Positions 6,803 to 60,445 of a stretch of 64,000 nucleotides of DNA are shown here, piece after piece. The translations under genes were made by a program, and so were the position numbers. The notes beneath the pieces were generated by a model. The model had not been told where the DNA came from. It searched no databases and saw only the letters and a list, made by a program, of their open reading frames with translations. The DNA is from Eledone cirrhosa (Eukaryota): positions 137,888,001-137,952,000 of the forward strand of contig OZ024741.1 of the NCBI GenBank assembly GCA_964016885.1. The letters run 5' to 3'. Each line of letters opens with the position of its first letter. The first letter of the stretch is position 1.

Positions 6803-7253
6803 TTCGTTTCTGAATTTGTTTAGCAAGATTCTTTATCTGAAAACGAGTGTTGAAACCGATATTCTTATGCTTTGGGAGGGTCATCTTGCCAATAAGAAAC
6901 ACACGCACCATAAGCTTTCACTCCAATTTATTATAAATTAAAGTATAAATTTAAGAATTTATAAATTTCTGGTTGGTTGGTTGGTTCCACAACCAGACGA
7001 TTGTTCATATATTCTCAAAGTTCTTTCGTCACACATTATGTGACCTCTTCAGTGACTGGGATTTTTTTCTTTGTTTTTGTGCCTCTCCTTTGTTCTGTCC
7101 TATGCCAGTTTGTTATTGTGTGTGTTGTGTGCTTTGTTTGCGCATGTGTTACATCCAGGTGTCTGTGTGTGTTTATATTCGTTTATTTATTTGTTTGTTT
7201 ACATGTTACTGGTGGTTGTTTGTTCTATGTGCGTGTGTGTTTTCATTTTGTCC

Positions 7254-8830
7254 TTACTTGTAAGTTGTGATGTTGCTATTCCATTCATGTTTTCTATTTA
7301 ATTTTGGTTGGAGTTCATTTATGTTTATTGCCTCTGTGATTTGTCTAAACATTGCGTCTTTTCTGTGTGTAGATTCTATTTTTATTTCTATGTTCTCTAA
7401 TTTACCCTTATGTTTTATTTTAGCATGTTGGTGGAGTACAGATGATTTTTTACTATCTTGAAGCTCTCGCCAGTGTTCATTTATCCGTTCTCCTATACTA
7501 TGAGCTGTCTCACCTATGTACACTATATTCTTATCTCTACATTGTCCTTCAGTACATCTGATGCTATATACTACATTTCTAGTTTTACAGTTAATACGGG
7601 GCTTAGTTTACAGATTATACATTTCTTATCTATACAGGGAGGTCTTTGAAAAGGGTATGTATTGTTAATAAGTGTTGTTATGGAGGTACCTGGTCTTTCT
7701 ACTATCTTAATATTGAGTTTATGTTTATCTAGGGCCCTTCTAAATTTGTAAGCTAATTCACCTCTAGGGGTTGTATTGATGAACATTACACTTTGGTATT
7801 TATTGCTATCATACCATGAGTTTATTCTATTAACCTTGTTCCTAGTTCTTTCTATTCTATTCCAAAAGTTGCTCCTATACAAGGGTCAGGTCCGATTTGT
7901 ATCATTATTTACCATTTTTTTCCATTTGGTTCTGGCTCCTCTATATACTCTAATTTTATCTCTCTGATTGTAACCAGAGAACTGCATACGGTGGATGAAG
8001 TGTTCTATGTGTCTCTCTAGTTCTTTGGGGTTGCACATGCGGGACACGTTTCTCATCACCCGTACCAAATCCGCAATCAGTATGTTGATTTTGGTGTGGT
8101 CCGAAACAGCTGAGTTTCGGTGGATATTTGGAAGTCATGCGTTTGGCATAATGGGAATGGAGGATTTGTTTTTTGTTATTAATGCTTTCTAACCAGAGCT
8201 CTGTGTCTAGTACAGGTAATCGATGGTTGGGGTGTTTGCTTGGGTAGTCTATAGTAACTCTAATACTCTGGTGGATGATGTTAGCTATTTGCTGGATGCT
8301 TTCCGTTGTGTTTTTCTCTAATTCCTGACTGTTCTCTAGTGGGGGTGTTTTTACTACGATGTTTATATCATCAACGTAGCGGGAGTACATTATCAGGGTT
8401 AAGAGGTTGCTGTCTTCTAATTGTTCTTTAAGTGTAAGTCTATTGTCCCACCATACCATGAATAGGTTAGCTATGTCACCTGCAATGCTATCACCAATGG
8501 CTGCTCCCTCCTCTTGGGCATATGTTTTTCCATTAAATTTGAACATATATTCCTTAAGGGTTAATTTTATACTGGCCCCCACGCACGTGCAATCATTTTC
8601 TTTAGTTCATCATCGTTTTCGGGGGTCCGTATGGCTCTGGTCCACCCGTTCCATCTATCTGTGTGGGGTTTCTTGGCCATTGAGGTAATGGTAGGTGGTC
8701 TGCCTCTTGCTGGTCTTGTAGAGCACAGGTTGCTAAGGTCATATGTATCTAGATAATCATTACTATAGGTAAGTTTAAGTAGGAGTCCCAGCTCACTGGT
8801 ATCAATCCCACGGAATTCAACATTGCTGTC
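7254..8830 (-). pseudogene. PLE RT plus GIY-YIG polyprotein, fragmented by frameshifts
   Basis: Collinear ORF pieces 7956-8582, 7886-8068, 7571-7882 and 7254-7523. Confidence 0.88.
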
Positions 8831-8851
8831 TCACTGATCATTTCTACGCAT

Positions 8852-9266
8852 TAGCAATACATACCCTTTTCAAAGACCTCCTTGTATAGATAAGAAATGT
8901 ATAATCTGTAAACTAAGCCCCCATATTAACTGTAAAACTAGAAATGTAGTATATAGCATAATATGTACTGAAGGACAATGTAGAGATAAGAATATAGTGT
9001 ACATAGGTGAGACAGCTCATAGTATAGGAGAATGGATAAATGAACACTGGAGAGAGCTTCAAGATAGTAAAGAATCATCTGTACTCCACCAACATGCTAA
9101 AATAAAACATAAGGGTAAATTAGAGAACATAGAAATAAAAATAGAATCTACACACAGAAAAGACGCAATGTTTAGACAAATCACAGAGGCAATAAACATA
9201 AATGAACTCCAACCAAAATTAAATAGAAAACATGAATGGAATAGCAACATCACAACTTACAATTAA
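8852..9266 (+). pseudogene. Inverted copy of the PLE Zn-knuckle linker and GIY-YIG endonuclease
   Basis: Open frame NTYPFQRPPCIDKKCIICKLSPHINCKTRNVVYSIICTEGQCRDKNIVYIGET...; catalytic-region R replaced by W (GEWINEH). Confidence 0.85.
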
Positions 9267-9656
9267 GGACAAAATGAAAACACACACACGCATAGAACAG
9301 ACAACCAACCTGTAACATGTAAATAAACAAATAAATAAACAAATATAAACACACACAGACACCCGAATGTAACACATGCGCAAACTAAGCACACAACACA
9401 CACAAAAACAAAATGGCGTAGAACAGAACAAAGGAGAGGCACAAAAACAAAGAAAAGAATCCCCAATCACTGAAAAGGTCACAGAATGTGTGACGAAAGA
9501 ACTTTGAGAATATATGAACAATCGTCTAGTTGTGGAACCAACCAACCAACCAGAAATTTATAAATTCTTAAATTTATAAATTTAATTTATAATAAATTGG
9601 TGTGAAAGCAGCTGGTGCGTGTGTTTCTTATTGGCAACATGACCCTCCCAAAGCAT

Positions 9657-10560
<904 letters not shown>

Positions 10561-11364
10561 GCAATTACTTTGATGCAATATATTTTAAAAGATTAGAAAA
10601 ATGATATCTCTTAAAGTCATAGAAGGGAACAGCAATTAAAGTAAAGCAACGAATACATAAAATTAAACTAGTACTTAATTTTATTTTAAAAGATACTTAT
10701 AGGTGAATGGTATTGTCATTAGATTGTGGAATGAACATTGAATGAAACGGGGGAAAATTCAACTCTATATGAAATATTTAGGCATAATTTAGAGGTAACG
10801 GTACTTGGTCTCAAAGAGTTTAGTGATCAACATTTAATATTACCAACGATGATTTACACATACATTTTCAGTATTCTGCTTCTTAGTAAAATATATTATT
10901 TCCGATTGAAAATTCCTTGTAGGGAAAAACACTTTAATTATTTTATATAAGCCGTTTTACAATGATGGGAGGTTTTCTTCATAGCACTTGTTAATTATGC
11001 AATATTGAAGTTGCTTATTATATATTTTAGAAAGTGGGTTGAGCAGAAATCGATAAGTGTATTTTACTTGTGCGGTGTGTTTCTCTCTGTGAAAAGTAAA
11101 TCTGAACATTGGCAATCGTTTGTCATAATAGCATCATTAATAAAAACATTTTTTTGGCCTCAAAATAGGAAATTCAGAATAGTGTCACAGAATTTTCCCT
11201 TTTTTAAACGATGACATAATATTTAAGAATTACTAAGCCCCATCTCTGCAAATTATTTATTGCATAGCTATTGTGATAAAAGAATTAGCGTGACATTTAA
11301 TTCTAAACAAAAAGTGTGTTACTTATATTTTATCTACGTTTCTACTGTATATTAAATGTCTGTA

Positions 11365-11650
11365 TGGATTGGCAGTATCAGGAGAGGGTCGGACACCATG
11401 CTTTGCAGCATAGGGTTACGGCCCTTTACGGTCTGAATTCAAATCCCACCGAGGTTAACTTTGCTTTTCATCCTTTCGGTGTCGATAAAATAAAGTACCA
11501 GTAATGCACTGGGTTAATTGCTGGCCTTGTGCCAAAGGTATAAACAATTATATTTACAGGGTCGATAACATAACGTACCAGTAACGCACTGGGATCGATT
11601 TAATCGACTCCCCCTCTAAAATTGTTGGCATTGTGCCTATCAGAAACCAC
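11365..11650 (+). mobile_element. tRNA-derived SINE (MetaSINE-like) plus a partial second 3' half
   Basis: A box tggcagtatcagg, B-box-like aattcaaatcc, core ctttcatcctttcgg.gtcgataaaataaagtacc. Confidence 0.85.
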
Positions 11651-12956
11651 TTTATTTACATTGTCATTCTCTAGAAGAGGTGAACGTTTGTATGTTTCTT
11701 TATCTTAAAGCAGTGGAAATGTATAGTCTAGGTATATGTAGATACGTAGAGCGGCTTCCATCTATTATTATGGCGCTAGTTTTATTTTATTGTATCTTGT
11801 GTGGTATATTCTGATACATGATCAGAAAGTATTCGATATTGTCTCAGAATGTATTCGATATTGGTGAGATTTCTATATTATAGGAATGGTGAATATTACA
11901 TTTGTGATGGGGACTGTATTGCGAATAGTATATCATCTTTAGCTGCATATATCTCAGAGGTTTTAATTATATCTGAAGCATATATTTTGCAAAACTGTTA
12001 GCCATGTAAAGTCCTATATTAATGGCTGTTTTTTTGCCTACCAGTATGGGTATAAACACTATTTTGATGCCCTAACAAGCTTTATTAGTGTCGGTTTTCT
12101 CAACATAGACATTGTGTTGTATGTTAAATATTTATATATGCGTATGTATTTAACAGGTCATGAATAATATAAACTTCATCTTTTCAACGGTTGGGGTGGA
12201 ACGAACTATTTTATCAGTTTTCAATATGCTAAATGCATCCTGTTACATACAGTGTGTTCCAGCTTTGACGCAATATGTGCAGCAATTATAAGGATCATTA
12301 TGACTTTATGATATTATCCATTGTCGCTATCTTGAAAAACTTGAACATCAATGTTTTCAAAGGGAATTAACTCGACATATTATGAGGAAATTTTCGTAAA
12401 TATGTGCTTTGAATATAATTTATGGGCAACTTTTTCATTTTAATGTGTTGATTTACGCGTATAAAATTTGAGATGAGATTCGTTATTTGGTGTGCTTCAT
12501 ATAGTATTCTCCAGATATCAGTCAACAGCCTGAATTTAATATTTTTCAGTCATGAATATAAATCATATCATAAATATACATTCTATAATATGTAATATCT
12601 ATTTGAAGTTTTTGTTGTATAAGAGATAAGAGTGAAGGACATGCAATGTTTCCATAAATATTTTAAAGATAAATGCAGTCTTTTGTTCAATGATTAAGTG
12701 ATTATTACATACAAATGAGGAGAGAAATGGCCATCGTCAACCGAATATTACAAAAATTAAACAATATTTAAGAAAGTCCTATTAATTTCATATTTTAATG
12801 GCGATTCTACACTCTACTCAGAGGTTGGGTTATTAATACGTCTTCAGAGCGTTAATAGCGTTACTAATTTCAACATACGGCCTTGGATTTTAAGGGAAAA
12901 TGAAAGACAATTTCGTCGATACTAATACACAATTGTTACTTAACTTTATCGAAGGA

Positions 12957-13319
12957 CTAGCAGATTTACCCGGCGTTGCCCGGGGTTTGAAATACAACAA
13001 AGAATAAACAAGAAACAAACGATAATATTAGTGATTTATTTTCAAATGAATCTGATGTTTATATTTCTGTCAATAAAGTTGGTTATCTCCCTTTTTTATA
13101 AGGATTGTCAATAAAGTTTTTGCTACCGATAATTTTGATATCAATTTTTATTGCTCAACGTGGGTCGATTTGAAAAATGTTTGTGATGTGACCATCTTAG
13201 CGACGTGTAACGTGCACAGAAAATTTGGTCAAATTCGGTTGGTAATTGTAAAAGCCTTAACTATCCAAATTTGTACACAGACACACACACACACACATCC
13301 TCGCTTTTATATATATAGA
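12957..13319 (-). mobile_element. Non-autonomous Helitron nested in a SINE
   Basis: Minus strand starts TCtatatatataaaag and ends with a cccgg-gcaacg-ccggg hairpin followed by CTAG then T; it splits a minus-strand SINE (about 12840-12956 and 13320-13440). Confidence 0.8.
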
Positions 13320-13756
13320 AGATGAAAGGATGAAAGATAATGTTGACTCCGGCGGAATTTGACCTCAGAACGTAAACTAGCGTGACTAAATACTGCAAGG
13401 CATTTTGTCCGACGTTCTAACGATTCTGTCAATGCGCCAACTATTTTTAGTGCGTTAATAACATCACCAAAATTAAATACCTTTATGCAAATATCATTAA
13501 ATAAGGTTTTAGGTTCTATAGAAATAATCACTTTCACTGACGTAGAGTCTATAGGAGTAACATTTTAAGTTCTGAACTGAAATCAGAATACATTCGACCT
13601 AGTCTAAAATATGGGTATATATCTGGCTATGATCTGGCAGGGGTTTAGGAGAGTCGTTAGAATGTCAGATAGGATGATTTGTTGCTTTCGTTTAGGTTCT
13701 CTGCGCTCCGAGTTCACATTGAGCTGGTGTTAAATACACATAAACACGCACTCACG

Positions 13757-13787
<31 letters not shown>

Positions 13788-13889
13788 AATAAATAAATAT
13801 ATATATATATATATATATATTATGAAGAGAGAAGAAACATTTAGATATAATTAGTAATAAAATGTATCATACCTAAACTGTTCCTAAAT

Positions 13890-13977
13890 TCCTCGACTAC
13901 GTAGTTTCGTGGCATAAACAAAAACAATATATCAAAGATATAGAGTCCTTGCGAGGTCTGCCGACTTATCAAGAGGA
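13890..13977 (-). ncRNA. Type I hammerhead ribozyme, U3-A8 variant (copy 1)
   Basis: tcctc-TTGATAA-gtcggca...tgccac-GAAA-ctacgtag-TC-gagga. Confidence 0.8.
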
Positions 13978-14480
13978 TACCTCATTTTACTAGTCTCAAG
14001 AACGCGTCTACACGACGTGAGAAAGAATCCCAAAAGGCGGAGGGGGAGATAGTCACGCGATATAACGGTCGAGAAACAGAGCTAAGCCTCTTATAACCAC
14101 GAAGAAAATACCACGGAGGCGGAGGGGGTATTCATATCGAGGCCGTAGAAGAGGTAGTGAAGAAGGCGAGAAGTATGAGTAATGGAAGCTTTCCAGTTGT
14201 CCCCACACCTCAAAGATTGCTCGACCAGAGGGAGTTATTAATATATTTAGAAACACACAGATACATGCGGACGCACACATATATACATGAACGCATCCGC
14301 ACCCAACTGTGAGTTAAGGGTGCCAACTTCACCGATGTTGCTCAATGAATGACTGGGACAGACCAATTCAGTTTGAACTAGACTGAACCAGTATCAGAGT
14401 TAAAAATACATTATGAAGAGAGAAGAAACATTTAGATATAATTAGTAATAAAATGTATCATACCTAAACTGTTCCTAAAT

Positions 14481-14568
14481 TCCTCGACTACGTAGTTTCG
14501 TGGCATAAACAAAAACAATATATCAAAGATATAGAGTCCTTGCGAGGTCTGCCGACTTATCAAGAGGA
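14481..14568 (-). ncRNA. Type I hammerhead ribozyme, U3-A8 variant (copy 2)
   Basis: Same sequence as 13890-13977. Confidence 0.8.
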
Positions 14569-14604
14569 TACCTCATTTTACTAGTCTCAAGAACGCGTCT
14601 ACAC

Positions 14605-14654
<50 letters not shown>

Positions 14655-14940
14655 CGGAATTCCTTCCTTGCTCACATTTCGACTAGGTTTGATGGTCTTT
14701 ATTCTCTCTCGTTCACGATTTCACCGAACATATATTCATGGAAATCTGGGACTTGACTCTTTCTTCCTCACTTTTCGTTGCATTACCATCTTTGTTTGTT
14801 TACAGTCTCGCTCGTTCCCCTTATTTACGTGTCCCAACGAGTTTCTTTAGCCGTTGCTCGCACCAACCGGAGGTATATGGTCTTTAAAGCGATGAAATAC
14901 CAATGAAGGTTGCAAGATAACTGATGAAGGACTAACTTTA

Positions 14941-14981
<41 letters not shown>

Positions 14982-14984
<3 letters not shown>

Positions 14985-15420
14985 AAAGTTTTATTTAAGA
15001 TTGTTGGGTTACAACGAGTAAATATTTTATAACTGATATAAAAGCACTGAACAGTTTCTGGAGTAGGTTTACGATATTAAACAAATGGAAACTATATTTA
15101 TAAAACCATATTTATTTCGTTATATATATTTCTGGGATATCATATTAAAAATATGGTATGCCTTCCTCAGACAAAATACAATACATAAGCTGTTTTATAA
15201 ATAATTATTGACATACCTTATAATAATGCAACTTCCAAATCAACTTTTTAAATGGAAGTTGCATTATTATAAGGTATATCAATAATTATTTATAAAACAG
15301 CTTATGTATTGTATTTTGTCTGAGGAAGGCATACCATATTTTTAATATGATATCCCAGAAATATATATAACGAAATAAATATGGTTTTATAAATATAGTT
15401 TCCATTTGTTTAATATCGTA
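14982..15420. mobile_element. Fold-back mini-element family C; arms 15070-15237 / 15253-15420
   Basis: ~168-bp inverted repeat plus an ~88-nt tail, in (TA)n; related copy at 38469-39582. Confidence 0.85.
15312..15377 (+). ncRNA. Minimal hammerhead ribozyme (mirror at ~15113-15178, minus strand)
   Basis: tattttgt-CTGAGGA-(helix II)-GAAA-tatata-TA-acgaaata. Confidence 0.7.
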
Positions 15421-15450
15421 TATATATTTATATATATATATATATATATA

Positions 15451-15683
15451 TAGGAACGAGTAGGACCCCGACGGCTGAGCTCAAGCCGTTTCGACGGCTA
15501 ATTCTGGACTAAAAAAAAAGGTTTCTGGACTAAAAAAAAATTTTTTAGTCCAGAATTAGCCGTCGAAACGGCTTGAGCTCAGCCGTCGGGGTCCTACTCG
15601 TTCCTATTACCCACTCTACTACCCTAAGTATTGAGTACTTTGGTGCGTTATGGTCCATCTGGTTCCTTACCACATTTCCTTCG

Positions 15684-15686
<3 letters not shown>
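15451..15686. mobile_element. Fold-back mini-element family B (copy 2)
   Basis: Homologous to 6580-6774 in the opposite orientation; (TA)n flanks. Confidence 0.85.
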
Positions 15687-15717
<31 letters not shown>

Positions 15718-15723
<6 letters not shown>

Positions 15724-16070
15724 GACGTAAAATAAGAAAATTTAAAAAAAAATTAAAAATTAACTTACTTACTAAAATTTAGTGACCGCGCATTGCCTGG
15801 AGACTTAGCTGAGAATAGACTCCCTGATGACGTAATGAATTCTGGATGGTTATATTACGTAACTATCTTTATCCCATTACAGAAACTAATTAGTTGGAGT
15901 GAAATTTTAGTAAGTAAGTTAATTTTTAATTTTTTTTTTAATTTTCTTATTTTACGTCTTTCATAATTGTTCTGCATCCTCCTGCATTGAACCACCTAGG
16001 TACTATGACATAACTTATGTATTTGCTAGCATTAGTGTACATTTGTACGCATATGTTGGTAGATATACTA
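15718..16070 (+). mobile_element. Mini-element family H with inverted ends (15718-15780 / 15903-15964) and a hammerhead
   Basis: Inverted arms plus tail; related copies at 46020-46244 and 28185-28345. Confidence 0.8.
15819..15900 (+). ncRNA. Type I hammerhead ribozyme
   Basis: actcc-CTGATGA-c-gtaatg...cattac-a-GAAA-ctaattag-TT-ggagt. Confidence 0.8.
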
Positions 16071-17394
16071 ATTCTCTCTCTATATATAGATATATAGATA
16101 TATATTTATTTATTTATTTTAAATAATATTTAAAGAAAAAAACATTCTGTTGTTTCCACAAAAGCTTGAAATAGGAAAGCACAGAAAAACTTTATATACC
16201 TATAAGAATATTATACTTTATACAAATATTTGAAAAAATCTGTGGTTGAAAAAATATTAAATTTTAATTTGTCGAGCTGACGGACACAAATACAAACATA
16301 ATCGATCAAAAGTAAATGATATAAGGACATATTTCAATGAAATATTTTGAGTAAATATTGACAAGAAATTATAGTACAGAATTTTAAATCACCACAAAGA
16401 TTATTGTTATTTTATTCCACTACATTTTTAATGGTGATCGAGTAAATGTTTCTAATAGAAATATAATGAGAAATAAATGAAGAAACTACTGGAGTGTACA
16501 ATTGGTTTCACTGTCCTAATGATAAAAATAACATAATGAGCAGAAAATGCAGCATCGAAGGAAGAAGATGTTTTAGTTTGGTGTGTGTGTTTTTATGTGT
16601 GCCTGCGCGCGTGTGATTGCGTGTGTAAGTGTTTGAGATATAATAGATGGAGAAAATATAATGAACACTTATGAAAAGTGCTAATGTTTTGAAATGTTCC
16701 TGCCATATTTCGTATTAACGTCTATATTTATGACCATTACATATTGATGTTGTTCTTATTGTTTCATGTGATACAAACATATTTATACTTCATATATTTA
16801 CATTCAATTGGTTGTGATCTGTAGTTTTCAACACACTCTCCCATATATAGGAAACACACGCGACATTCATGTTCGTTTATATTTTACTGCAGATACACAC
16901 ACACACAAACTCGTCACCTCATAATAAAGTGGAACCCTCTACTTAACCAAATGTTTATACACACTCACACATACACACACACATACACAAACACACATAA
17001 CTACACAGTCGCCCCCCCCCCCCACACACACACACACACACCCACATATATTTATATATATATAGGTTATTACACCTATTTCAAGATACTATAAGGGATA
17101 GGTATACCGGAACTATGATTACGTATTTATTTATGGTTGTTTACGCGGCAATCATGGTTTCTAATGTAAGCAAAATTCGGCTTTAAAACCATTTAAAGGT
17201 ATTCTCCATTACTTTTAATTTTGATGGAAATATGTGGCATGTTTTAAGGCTTTATAATAAAATTGATTAAATTTATATTCACATTTAGCGCAATCTTCCA
17301 ACATATATATTTGCAGATATACGACAATATTATACTTCTGCTGCTTAAAGCACAAATTAAAATGTGCAAATTTACTGAGATATATTATCATATT

Positions 17395-17512
17395 ACGAGC
17401 TGAGGATGCGCTAAGGTTAAACAATTGTTCTCGGTATGGTGAACTAACTGTTGTGTAACCACTTGTACCGAACTCGTCCCACGGATATTATTACCTTCCA
17501 ATGTTCTACCAC
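17395..17512 (+). mobile_element. Family A mini-element, single arm, degenerate hammerhead
   Basis: cgagctgaggatgcgctaaggttaaacaattgttctcgg...gttctaccac followed by (TA)n. Confidence 0.7.
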
Positions 17513-17521
17513 TATATATAC

Positions 17522-18013
<492 letters not shown>

Positions 18014-47926: not shown

Positions 47927-48560
47927 AGTGAAAACTTTGACGGGAATAAAAACAGAAAGGTAGTACAAATAAAGATTTATTAGGTTCACGCTCTTGAGAG
48001 TGGGGGTGGGTGGGTGACATTTCAGGCATAACACCTTCATCAGGAGAAAATTGCGTAGGAAGAGAGTTCCGAGGGTGTGTGGGGGAGTGGTGGAGAGACA
48101 TTTAGTAAAAAGTGGGGGAGAGAAAAGGGAGGAAAAAAGGTGGAAGGGGTACAAATAAAAATAAAAATAAACATAAAGATAAACAAGTGCTGGAAAGGTG
48201 TGAGGTGTGTATGAGGAGGGGGGAGGGAGGCGGGGGCTCACAGCGGGGAGGGCTGAAGGTGGTATTTGTGTATGTGTGTAGGTGTACGTGTGTGTGTGTG
48301 CGTATATATGTGAATGTGAGAGTTGGGGGAAGAACGAGGTTCCATGTTCAGGTAAAGGTTTGTGTGTGAGTTGGGGTGTAGGTCGGTGTGTGCGTGCGTG
48401 TGGATAGAGAGGGATCAGACGGTTGGAGAAATGGCGTGTCGATACCGGAGGCAAAGTGTGTATATGTGGGGGTACGAACGTGTTTTTTTGGTGTTTATAC
48501 GTGGTGTGGATGTAGGTGGCGTGGTTCGAAAGAAAATGTCAGTGTATGTCCGTGAGTAAG
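47927..48560 (-). mobile_element. pLTR-like 3' fragment with a hammerhead core at 48015-48048
   Basis: Minus strand CTGATGA-agg(tgttatg)cct-GAAA; aataaa then (TA)n at its 3' end. Confidence 0.5.
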
Positions 48561-50223
48561 TTCTCATCATGTACTCTCGTTACGTAGACGACATCAATAT
48601 AGTAATAAGGACATCCTCACAAGAGAGTACTAACAAGTTTGATTTAGAACGTATCACAATGGAAAGCATCCAGCAGATAGCTAATTTCATACACCAGAGT
48701 ATAACTGTAACTATCGACTACCCTTCCAAACATCCTAACAATAGATTACCTGTATTAGACACGGAACTCTGGATTAACACTATAGACGAGAGAGCCCAAA
48801 TTCTCCACTCACACTATGCTAAACCCATGGCCTCCAAATACCTGATACTCAAAAACTCAGCAATGTCCAGTAGTGCTAAGTTTAATATTTTGATCGCAGA
48901 CTTGGTACGAGTGATGAAGAACGTGTGCCGCATGTGCGACCCAAAAGAAATGGAAAGACACATCCAACACTTCATCAACTGCATGCAGTTGTCTGGCTAC
49001 AACCAAAGAGACAGAATCAGAGTATACGAAGGAGCCACGGAGAAGTATAAGACCTTCATAGAACTGGACATGAAAGGGATTTGCCCATTATACAGGAGCA
49101 AATCATGGAATAGCTTAGATAGGACTAGACATAATATAGGGAAAGCCACCTCATGGTACGACAACCAGAGTGTCATGTCTGTTGACGCTACCTCTGGAGG
49201 GAAATTAGCTAACCAGTGTAGAAAGGCCCTGTGAAAGACCCACTTAAAGATTAAGGTGGTAGAAAAGCCAGGAACCACCATAAAATCCCTGATCAGCAAA
49301 ACCTACCCTTTTAAGCAAACCCACTGTACTAATTGAAAATGTATTATATATAAAGTAAACCCCCGGATAAAGTGTAAAACTAGAAACGTAGTCTATAGCA
49401 TAAGATGTACAGAGGGTACTTGCAGAAACATAACAACAACATACATAGGCGAGACAGCTCGTAGCATAGGTGAAAGGATAGACCAACACTGGGGGGAACT
49501 AAAAGGATGAAAAAACGGTTCCGTACTATACGAACATGCCAGACAAAAAAAAACACGACGGTAACATAGACAACATAGAAATTAGAATAATATCTAAACA
49601 TAGAAATGACCCAGCAGATAGGCAAATCTGAGGGGCCAGCGAAATAGAACTTAGAAGGCCAAGGCTAAACAGAATAAAATGAAAGGAATAACAACACCCA
49701 AACAAACAACACTGACCTAAGAGAAGTATAAATGAATAAATAAATACATACACAAGCACAATAACAACAAACACATATAAACACACACTAGTAAACTAAG
49801 ATAGAATACAATAACCAATACGCAGTCACCCAAACACGAACACACATCAAACAAAACACTATACACACACGCAAACGCATGCGCAGAGAAGACAAAAAAA
49901 TAATAATAAATAAATAAATAAATAAATAAATAAACAGACTAAATAAAGATGGCGTAGCCATACAATACAACGGGAAGAAACATAATATCACCACTGACAA
50001 TGTTGCAGATGTGCAACGAAAGAACATATAACGAAAGACTATATATATGTGTTTGTGTCTATATTGTATCTGTATTTTTGACCGTTGGTCGGTTAGTGTC
50101 AACATTGAGGATCAAAAAAATTAAATTAACCGATATAAAAGACACTGAAGCGAAAACCAACCAAACAGTGAGTGTGTTCTGTTATTAATTCTGGCAATAT
50201 TATTACACAAATATGACCCTCCC

Positions 50224-54064: not shown

Positions 54065-55962
<1,898 letters not shown>

Positions 55963-57576: not shown

Positions 57577-60247
57577 CTACTGTCCATATATCTTGAGAAA
57601 GGTCCCGGCTCTAAGGTGTCTGCATGTCCCGAAGAAGTCGGTTCTGAGGTTTATCAGGCCGCTTCCACCTCTTAGTATCTCGACGGTCTTGTACAGGCAT
57701 AGTTTGCATATGCAAGATCCCCCTTTATCGGGTGGTACTTTCCTGATTATGTACCAGGCCAGCGAGTATGGGGTCCTGTCCAGCTTAAGCTTCCAGATCA
57801 GGTCGGAGAGAACTGTGCTTTTCCTTTTGGCCTCCTTCTTGAATGAATGGCGACGGTTGTACCAGCGGTCCTTAAAGCTCGTTGATGTGGATCCTATATA
57901 GAGGTGTTCGGAGTTGGGGGTTTTAACCCTACAACCGTACACAAGGTTCTTCTCGAGACATTCATTACCAAGGGGGCATGATTCGGGGTTTCTGCAGTTG
58001 CAGAGGGTGGTCGGCCTCTGCCTGCCTAGATTAGGGTTCTCATTATGTGTTACATGTTGGTCCTCCCCCATGCTCGGTGAGGGGTCCTTGGGTCTGTTTG
58101 TGTTTCTTGGGTGGGCTCTGGGTCCCTCCTTCCCTCCTTTCACATGGTTCTGCTGAGTGTTTGTATTGCCATCTTCTGGTTGTGTGTGGTTTTTAAGCCT
58201 ACTTCTGTTGATGCTAGCTATGTGTTGGGCCAAATTTCTCGTGGTGGAATACGAAAGCTTCACAGTGTGTCTGTTGAAGATCCTGTGGTATCTGTGGTCA
58301 CTCGGGAAGCATTTGTCAAGTGCTCCAAAGAATAATCGGGCCAAGCTTTTCTTTAGGGCCGCTGAGTAGGGTGGGTTGTACCACGTGATTTGTCGGTGTC
58401 TCCTCCTATATGTGTGGGTCGGGGGCTTCGTGATTTGTTGGAGATTTGTTGGGTTGCTGGTGGTTTCCGCACTGTTGCTTCCCTTTTGGGCTCTATACTT
58501 TTTGTTATCTTCGCGGCCCGGATTTGTGGGGTGGTTGTTGTCAACCCCGGGAGATCCATCGTGGGGTGGTCGCCCCCCCCCACGTGTCCTGCGGTTGGGA
58601 TCGTCCGTCCTGGGGTAGTTAGCGTCACGCCTGAGACTGCTACTCATATTGTGCTCCATCTCGTGGTCAAGCGCACTAGTCCCCACCGCCCGTGTGGTGG
58701 TGTCTGGTATATGGTGCCTATTTGATTCTGCTCTGCCTGTATTGTTAGGGTTTGCCCTTCCCCCTCTGGCAACGCGGTTGTGGGTGTCTGTTGGGCTATC
58801 CATCTCCCGGCTTTTCGGACTATAAGTTATATTTTGTCCATGTGCCGCCTTCTTTAGAGCTGCGTTGTAATATTCCGCGTGGTTGTTGAATATTTCCTTA
58901 CTTGCGGGCAGGCTGGAGATCCTGTCCGAGACACTGTTCACCACTGCCTTGGTTATGGATCTAGGGTGGTTTGATTTGGCGTTAACATATACGAGTTTCT
59001 CGTTGGGCTTGTGGTAGGGGTAGTATTGCTCGGTGTTCAGGTTTAGGGTGGTGTCTAGGAAGTTAACTACCTTCCTATTTGGGTCTATTTCTATGCTGAG
59101 CCCCTGGTTCTTAAAGAAATGGCGAATACGCCTCCTCATACCCTCGAACATATTGGTCCTGTGATCATGTACTGTGAATAGAGCATCGTCACGATATAAT
59201 CCGCCGCCCAGGTAGGGGATTTCATCATTCATCTGCTTCAGCAAGTAGAGCCCAACCAGGTCCGTTACCTGCGCTGAGTCGCTGGAGCCCATCGTGATGT
59301 CAAAGTTATTTGGCCAATCACTCCTGGTCCAAAGGTCTCCATCGAAGCGGATTAAGGTCTTTCTTGCGGCGTGGATGATGCTCACCTCCTCTCGGGTTAG
59401 GTCCGTATTGGACATCGCTAAAAATAGGGCCTTATTAAGTACTATGGGTGAGATTGAGGAGTAGTAGCTTGCGATGTCCAGTTGTATAAAGCTGGTCCTA
59501 CTTTTCTCATGCAGTATTTTGAACCATTCTATTACTTCTCTCGTGCATGACCATTGCTGTAATTTGGTTTTCTTCCGAAGCTTGGGCAAAATCCTATCCA
59601 GTATTCTTTTACTGACGATCCCTAGGTCAGATCTGGAGGGGGGCTATTAGTCTGACAGGGAGGTCGGACTCAAAGTTTGACTTGTGGTCTTTAAGGGTAA
59701 CCCGCGGCTCCCTTGGTTGGTATGGGGCCGTCCTGTCCTCTATGCCGATTCTGGATATAATCCTGTAAGCTGTGGCATTGATCTCATCCAGGGTAAATCC
59801 AGGTGTTTTTTTGTAGCACTTCCTCAGTTCCCTGAGGATTAGCTTATTGTACAGTTCAGTGTTCATGTTGTAGAGGTTGTTTGTTTTGTCAGCATGGACA
59901 AGTATTCCAGTTGTCCCTTTAAGTTCTGTAATCCGGTTTCTCAGGTGTCTGAGGTACTCCTGACTTCTAGTTGGGTTTCCGGAGAATTTGAGGTTGGATA
60001 TGATGTTAATCATCTCGTTTTCAAACTCCCCCATTAGTCTGTTGTGGGGGGGATTTCTCCTTGATTGAAAAAGGTACTCCATGTTTTCTGTGTTGGTAGT
60101 TTTCTGCGTTCCTCTTTCGAAGTGGAACGCCTTCCATCTCATCCTACGGATGAGGGAGTCCGTACTCTTGATGAGATCACTGGTGTATTCTCGTTTATCA
60201 GGTAGGGGGATGTCCTTCAGTGACGCTAAGGTTGCCAGTTTATCCAT
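57577..60247 (-). CDS. PLE reverse transcriptase-GIY-YIG polyprotein (~889 aa after correcting one frameshift at 59638-59643)
   Basis: RRMRWKAF; QLDIASYYSSI; TMGSSDSA; LYRDD; NFLD; WYNPPYS; CNCRNPESCPLGNEC; LVYGC...YIGST...FKDR; CKLC. Confidence 0.9.
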
Positions 60248-60445
60248 AGTGACTTATGTCCGCTACTGTTTGAAGCGCTCAACCCGTGTGGGAGCTAGAT
60301 AGATTTTGAGTTTATGTTGGTTGTATACCAACACCTCAGTATGCAGGCTGGAGCACTCGACGAAGTGCACAGGTTGGTTTGGTTACTCCGGAGTAGTGTA
60401 AAATAAAGTTAAATAAAAGTCAAATGATTAAAATTTAGCTTCGTT

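Follow-up and report, generated by a model that had tools for sequence, protein, structure and literature searches.

Metazoan non-LTR retrozymes are portrayed, in the accessible text of their descriptions, as non-coding tandem units with one type I hammerhead each, low GC content, thousands of copies, a structured predicted circle and co-occurrence with PLEs (PMC7229834; bioRxiv 10.64898/2026.07.22.740005). A 591-nt repeat in the genome of Eledone cirrhosa shares these features, but its unit compares with published lengths of 150–450 bp (PMC7229834) and 51–972 bp (bioRxiv 10.64898/2026.07.22.740005), and it differs in having a U3-A8 core and, as in PLEs, a short helix I with a long helix II. 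Its copies lie dispersed as insertions into (TA)n, with two fixed ends and with inversions; the words 'inverted', 'microsatellite' and 'truncat' do not occur in the main text of PMC7229834. EN+ PLEs carry a signature of partial tandems, an inverted 5' copy, a one-sided tail and a preference for (TA)n (PMC8557442), together with 5' truncation (PMC8557442; PMC11167929) and two internal RT start sites (PMC11167929). The 591-nt repeat resembles them in these points, as far as the accessible portions of both papers go, but has no ORF and a tail of ~171–176 nt, compared with the published 30–40 bp. Hammerheads of Schistosoma Cercyon PLEs (PMC4209133, as far as its text is accessible) are alike in the U3-A8 core, short helix I, palindromic helix III and predicted dimer; they are heterogeneous and mostly single, whereas those described here are near-identical and tandem, with a 10-nt helix III palindrome. 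Non-autonomous Chlamys elements such as MRC1 are likewise of PLE type and form multicopy head-to-tail insertions. Unlike the 591-nt repeat, they generally match the 3' end of the autonomous partner and belong to a clade that, in the accessible text, is without canonical hammerheads (PMC8557442). Plant LTR retrozymes, with two hammerheads flanking a non-coding spacer, correspond to the picture drawn in the preliminary description of the locus. They possess type III hammerheads, true LTRs of ~350 bp, PBS/PPT and a 4-bp TSD (PMC4918200), whereas the hammerhead analyzed here is of type I and the repeat length is not fixed but varies with truncation.

Two questions are treated as open in the available parts of PMC8557442, PMC7229834, PMC4209133 and bioRxiv 2026.07.22.740005: by what route PLEs come to form tandem and inverted insertions, and whether RT really uses the circles of retrozymes as templates. 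A circular template giving multi-unit cDNA is put forward as a hypothesis (PMC7229834; PMC4209133; PMC4918200; bioRxiv 10.64898/2026.07.22.740005), and editing is named in the accessible text of those retrozyme papers (including PMC7229834) merely as a possible cause of RNA heterogeneity. In the openly accessible literature, we found neither a description of the 591-nt family nor any study in which editing marks served to demonstrate a single template. The retrozyme class and the U3-A8 core variant are already known; what is new is the evidence on the template. With a probability of about 0.68, we consider that the 591-nt repeat spreads as a Penelope-mobilised retrozyme, whose hammerhead-cut monomer would be closed to an RNA circle.

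Within the window, by which we mean the whole analyzed stretch of 64,000 nt, the insertion and its surroundings comprise the following features.

13821..14607, minus strand: retrozyme insertion, a 5'-truncated 1.33-mer of the 591-nt unit (partial unit 14607-14412 and full unit 14411-13821)
14481..14568, minus strand: hammerhead 1, type I (U3 14563, A8 14558; predicted cut after C17 14486; activity predicted)
13890..13977, minus strand: hammerhead 2 (U3 13972, A8 13967; predicted cut after C17 13895; activity predicted)
13895..14485, minus strand: predicted 591-nt monomer or circular RNA (longest ATG ORF 75 aa)
13819..13821, minus strand: site A, fixed 3' end ..CUUCAUA(AUG), 74 nt 3' of the cut; end of the window copy
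~14409-14412, minus strand: internal occurrence of site A in the window copy
14236..14241, minus strand: site B, second fixed 3' end ..CUAAAUAUAU, ~171-176 nt 3' of site A; end of other copies
14087..14093, minus strand: UAAGAGG, predicted to compete for U3-U4-G5 and the 5' strand of helix I, possibly as an off-state helix
Overlapping 14087..14093, minus strand: TATA-like TATAAGAG; a promoter role is a guess
13758..13820, no strand: (TA)n target tract at the 3' end, interrupted by ATAA
14608..14651, no strand: (TA)n tract at the 5' truncation junction

The locus had been described as a cassette with two identical 196-bp repeats. Identity and spacing of the repeats are real: in a self-comparison, 13819-14016 equals 14410-14607 exactly over 198 bp at an offset of 591, and other offsets gave at most 6 bp. 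The 198 bp consist of 196 bp of the element and 2 bp common with the TA flank. The notion of a cassette had to be given up, since 196 bp merely marks the 5' truncation of the window copy: the repeats are a truncated extra unit, not terminal repeats, and their length varies with truncation. The C17 positions on the minus strand, 14486 and 13895, delimit a monomer from 14485 to 13895, in agreement with the 591-nt product predicted earlier from cuts between 14486/14485 and 13895/13894.

Both copies contain, on the minus strand, a 5-bp helix I (UCCUC/GAGGA), the core UUGAUAA and a helix II with G10.1-C11.1, followed by GAAA, the palindromic helix III ACUACGUAGU (10 nt) and GUC. The proposed U3-A8 hammerhead is thereby present in both window copies, but its novelty was overrated, as the accessible text of two papers holds natural precedents: covariation of C3-G8 to U3-A8 in natural hammerheads, with in vitro activity cited (PMC3088659), and U3-A8 in ~1,300 Schistosoma PLE hammerheads (PMC4209133). 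Helix II (57 nt) had been called branched; it folds unbranched, as a single long stem with internal loops. An Rfam scan of 10000-18000 detected no hammerhead at E<=5 and only sub-threshold miRNA-type matches; spurious matches of this type originate from two near-perfect palindromes adjoining TA tracts (window 15159-15331 and 15460-15595) that may be short inverted PLE-type ends or MITEs. In genome searches, a C3-G8 core spaced 30-60 nt from an identical helix III gave no match, and a U3-A8 version with a shorter helix II gave seven, all inside the retrozyme family; those inspected were point variants or had a helix II deletion and did not represent a dead-ribozyme lineage. A bacterial promoter scan of the DNA was irrelevant, with matches at chance level. 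Every tandem unit carries a type I hammerhead with an intact core (2 changes in 213-224 unit readings per position). Since the hammerhead motif itself had served to pick part of the sample, we do not regard this conservation as proving selection. U3-A8 cores recur in the host genome in a second, unrelated short repeat family (L035:2477, L101:2354, L122:4244, L128:58, L150), in which a minimal hammerhead with a 4-bp helix II and a CCGG palindrome occurs in inverted pairs within (TA)n and with two 3' ends. Further C3-G8 hammerhead-like motifs were seen in other repeats (L117:1403 (+), L116:767 (-)).

In the folding models, helix III has +1.5 kcal/mol as a hairpin, compared with -12.9 kcal/mol for two paired copies, and the 787-nt RNA reached -227.8 kcal/mol as a double hammerhead, -217.6 with two monomeric hammerheads and -236.2 when unconstrained. 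The double hammerhead is 10 kcal/mol better than two monomers but not the minimum fold, and cleavage as a dimer through the palindromic helix III is plausible on these models. The circular monomer is predicted to be highly self-paired (-173.5 kcal/mol, z -6.2 against 60 shuffles). Forcing the active hammerhead costs ~+8 kcal/mol in the circle and in the 787-nt RNA; in the modelled monomer circle the ribozyme would be switched off, which would suit a stable circle. One helix I pair varied among nine subfamily units from older subfamilies (U-A 7, U-G 1, C-G 1); this is one pair in one lineage, and the covarying base also covaries with the competing upstream helix. For the UAAGAGG competing helix, single-sequence folding favours a local hairpin instead. 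Across the alignment, RNAalifold detected double changes in 6/172 pairs.

The exact core-plus-helix-III pattern has 7,110 matches in the 3.0-Gb host genome and none for the reversed control, and is therefore far beyond chance. The genome search for further copies proposed earlier thus returned tandem units of ~591 nt in large number. We examined 84 insertions, namely all 51 covered by the first 100 listed of the 7,110 matches and 33 from the best matches of a further search; two pairs among them are likely duplicates (L055/L058 and L018/L025). The 51 insertions cover 53 Mb of contig 1, or ~1 per Mb, which would extrapolate to ~3,000 insertions genome-wide if the density is uniform. Within insertions, units of 591-598 nt follow one another head to tail, in arms of up to 6.9 units. 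The 5' ends are scattered (137 ends), and the 3' ends fall at two constant internal positions, site A and site B. Site A terminates 17 of the 31 single-arm insertions and site B 13, and one ends at another position. The 53 inverted insertions combine both sites, one per end, in 47 cases and use a single site for both ends in 2; the remaining 4 are cut or unclear. (TA)4 lies within 30 nt of 130/136 3' ends, compared with 208/2,133 window tiles, and subfamilies down to 79% identity keep the same architecture. Upstream of the unit, the 84 insertions show another unit or a scattered truncation point; in none do they continue into a PLE ORF, a continuation that, if found in the other copies, would according to the preliminary description have made the window copy a unique deletion product. 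The RT plus GIY-YIG ORF of autonomous PLEs is absent from the element. The fixed 3' ends, one-sided tail, 5' truncation, inverted copy and (TA)n target of PLE-mobilised elements are all present, so that the earlier assignment to a young, non-coding, high-copy retrozyme (longest ORF 75 aa) with PLE-type insertion anatomy holds. At the level of sequence, the element is a non-LTR retrozyme, and mobilisation of the PLE type is highly probable. Independent retrozyme insertions of differing ages were found stacked at one TA-rich site (L187, L190).

The host genome offers several PLE families. PLE-A is an intact family with an ORF of ~1,210 aa, an Asn-rich insert and a C3-G8 minimal hammerhead. It shows the same insertion pattern as the retrozyme, with two 3' ends ~60 nt apart (tail ~60 nt). 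An RT fragment of PLE-A lies at window 48560-49234, and the genome contains 19,750 first-look candidates. PLE-B, for which intact ORFs of ~890 aa exist elsewhere and 36,840 first-look candidates were counted, is near-complete at window 57577-60253, with YRDD and a C-terminal endonuclease, and we take it to be Hydra-like; such clade names were given by eye from published descriptions and motifs. In the comparison for kinship to a PLE pLTR, neither PLE-A nor PLE-B showed DNA similarity to the 591-nt unit; these are two families in a genome with more. A Hydra-like fragment (L186) abuts a retrozyme and was rejected as a partner, being old, degenerate and in opposite orientation. Loose ends in public contigs consisted only of TA junctions at sites A and B, with no recurring partner junction among the matches listed. 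Pfam analysis of five window ORFs gave one weak RVT_1 match. The window further holds an older inverted PLE insertion at 7000-9560, whose arms (7213-7601 and 8919-9307) are 97% identical. Traces of RT and endonuclease persist in it, and a degenerate motif resembling a hammerhead lies close to either end.

Evidence on the template comes from sequence variants, which were scored against the column majority and separated into all-unit variants, present in every unit covering the site, and single-unit variants, present in one. For the spectrum, 56 young insertions were used, with 28 of the 84 left out as older subfamilies. On the ribozyme strand, the 44 all-unit sites included 22 A>G and 5 T>C changes (p 6e-6 for the 133 A and 212 T present; 17 and 5 once L104 is excluded). 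The 71 single-unit sites included 3 A>G, 9 T>C, 16 C>T and 11 G>A, and the A>G shares of 22/44 and 3/71 differ with a Fisher p of 1e-8. Partial-array variants amounted to 5 cases in this set and 4 in a replicate analysis. In a control with four PLE-A loci, the same test yielded 3 A>G of 23 (p 0.003). The replicate set (27/31 loci kept by the identity filter) repeated the excess, with A>G shares of 9/16 and 6/43, but with all A>G at previously seen sites and three new sites that are not A>G; a middle-aged subfamily was borderline (8/18 vs 6/34, p 0.052). A 5' G neighbour was found at 1/22 A>G sites and 27/112 other A's (p 0.028), and a 3' G neighbour at 9/22 and 16/112, respectively. According to the accessible text of PMC5625713, 5' G depletion is a universal ADAR preference and 3' G is vertebrate-type, while invertebrate hyper-editing prefers a 3' A, unlike the 3' G seen here. 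Within the monomer fold, the degree of pairing at A>G sites (0.63) does not exceed that of the remaining A's (0.60). Exons of an ADAR2-type deaminase are present in the host genome (L224, C6:13644405-13646174), as are two further deaminase loci on C1 and C25. RNA editing is quite likely the source of the A>G excess; transcription-coupled DNA mutation was rejected because the single-unit variants lack such a bias.

The variants are moreover shared within insertions and, in part, private to them. Inverted arms agree in 275/278 comparisons over 13 sites, where 214 would be expected by chance. At unit position 33 (UAG), G is present in 25/55 insertions, whatever their background, and the four-gamete test finds this position incompatible with 9/15 other sites, as would suit a recurrent event; its arms nonetheless agree in 21/21 cases. 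L104 has eight A>G relative to the window unit in every unit covering them, and a 33-nt stretch with four of these has 7 genome matches, all in L104 (4 and 3 by orientation). The haplotype of L042 has 4 matches in one insertion and both orientations, and the triple A>G of L138 has 2, its own two units. All three A>G haplotypes tested, which were chosen for being private in the sample, are private genome-wide, as counted in a single assembly from which parent arrays could be missing. A single edited monomer read repeatedly is the simplest explanation, since RT errors would vary per pass and editing of a multimer per unit, and one monomer per insertion is quite likely. Arm agreement by itself points to a common source and not to a circle, because PLE-A arms share variants as well. 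Since no indel accompanies the passage through the cut site in 213 units (a substitution does in 8), a covalent circle is favoured over template jumps and is the probable template. A closed contig of unit length + 30 in two sequencing runs of unspecified kind was not used as support, because tandem DNA yields the same. The circle of the preliminary description has thus gained independent genomic support from the A>G split, arm agreement and private haplotypes, and it is still a predicted molecule.

Taking these observations together, an RNA spanning two hammerheads would be cut, probably as a helix III dimer, and ligated, and the structured RNA may be A-to-I edited by ADAR, as spectrum and context suggest. 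To judge from the insertion ends, a PLE protein would nick (TA)n and prime cDNA at internal sites A and B, often at one site per DNA strand, and RT could then travel 0.1-7 times round one molecule. The insertions themselves are tandem, truncated at the 5' end and often inverted; their units share variants and show the ribozyme-strand A>G excess. The insertion record is likely to constitute genomic evidence for rolling-circle RT of single edited RNAs from two priming sites; for the full chain, in which insertions would be genomic recordings of single ADAR-edited, ribozyme-made circles made by rolling-circle RT from two PLE RT sites, we consider the odds to be even. Two findings in the accessible text of published work count against a cleaved circle: insertion by PAc in vitro was unaffected by hammerhead mutants (PMC11167929), and 8/9 Xenopus retrozyme dimers showed no cleavage (bioRxiv 2026.07.22.740005). 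If the hammerhead is dispensable, the templates could have been linear, namely long transcripts that read through homogeneous parent arrays and were either uncleaved or cleaved on the 5' side only, with the A>G variants as inherited lineage marks. PAc does insert unprocessed RNA in vitro with RT starts at two internal sites, according to the available text of PMC11167929, four copies (L202, L207, L208, L211) run through intact cut sites before ending precisely at another, and the A>G sites of the replicate set are shared ones. Such a multimeric template is nevertheless unlikely: it requires identical parents of 5-8 units with private haplotypes, none of which is in the assembly, and it offers no route to regenerate long arrays. 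Stochastic editing should furthermore differ among units, but single-unit A>G is rare.

A cleaved but linear monomer would account equally well for the private shared edits, provided that RT jumped intramolecularly from the 5' end of the one edited molecule to its own 3' end. Truncations exactly at the cut site, of which 11 copies exist genome-wide (15 matches, 4 of them point changes) compared with 4 copies at a control position (10 matches, of which 5 are CpG changes and 1 is a deletion), lend this weak support (one-sided p 0.06); along with the covarying helix I pair, they bear indirectly on self-cleavage. Site A lies 74 nt from the 5' end and a jump would therefore be needed for nearly every arm, which, together with the indel-free crossings and the location of just 2/137 sampled 5' ends within 6 nt of the cut, makes a linear monomer quite unlikely. 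Growth or homogenisation at the DNA level after a short insertion, by unequal exchange or gene conversion and with the element as a satellite from a PLE end, is very improbable as a general explanation. A satellite model is discussed in the accessible text of bioRxiv 2026.07.22.740005, and adjacent units share changes in L107, L236 and L203, but this leaves unexplained the agreement of inverted arms, the A/B end rule and the strand-specific A>G excess confined to all-unit variants, and partial cases are few (5 compared with 44 all-unit sites). Partial sharing of variants in seven loci (L022, L107, L130, L144, L203, L221, L236), including L022 with variants that differ between arms, does indicate some DNA-level copying between units or mixed templates. 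The five-unit array L236 (host genome C23:26866064-26869148), in which two neighbouring units carry C17U and 4/5 units a different change, shows a sign of copying between units after insertion.

Under the circle reading, RNA edits act as natural molecular barcodes which tie the repeats and both arms of an insertion to one template, a test that is portable to any genome with young retrozymes. If the reading is correct, rolling-circle RT would explain the tandem and inverted structures of PLEs, and somatic-type RNA edits written to the germline would supply most of the new heritable variation of the family, so that A-to-I editing would here act back on inherited DNA. The 591-nt unit, compact and with its priming sites defined, also lends itself as a substrate to in vitro studies of reverse transcription by PLEs. 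Elsewhere in the window, a tandem duplication of ~578 bp at 54086-55150 derives from AT-rich repeat ends and TA tracts, and part of it recurs, inverted, beside other insertions (L145).
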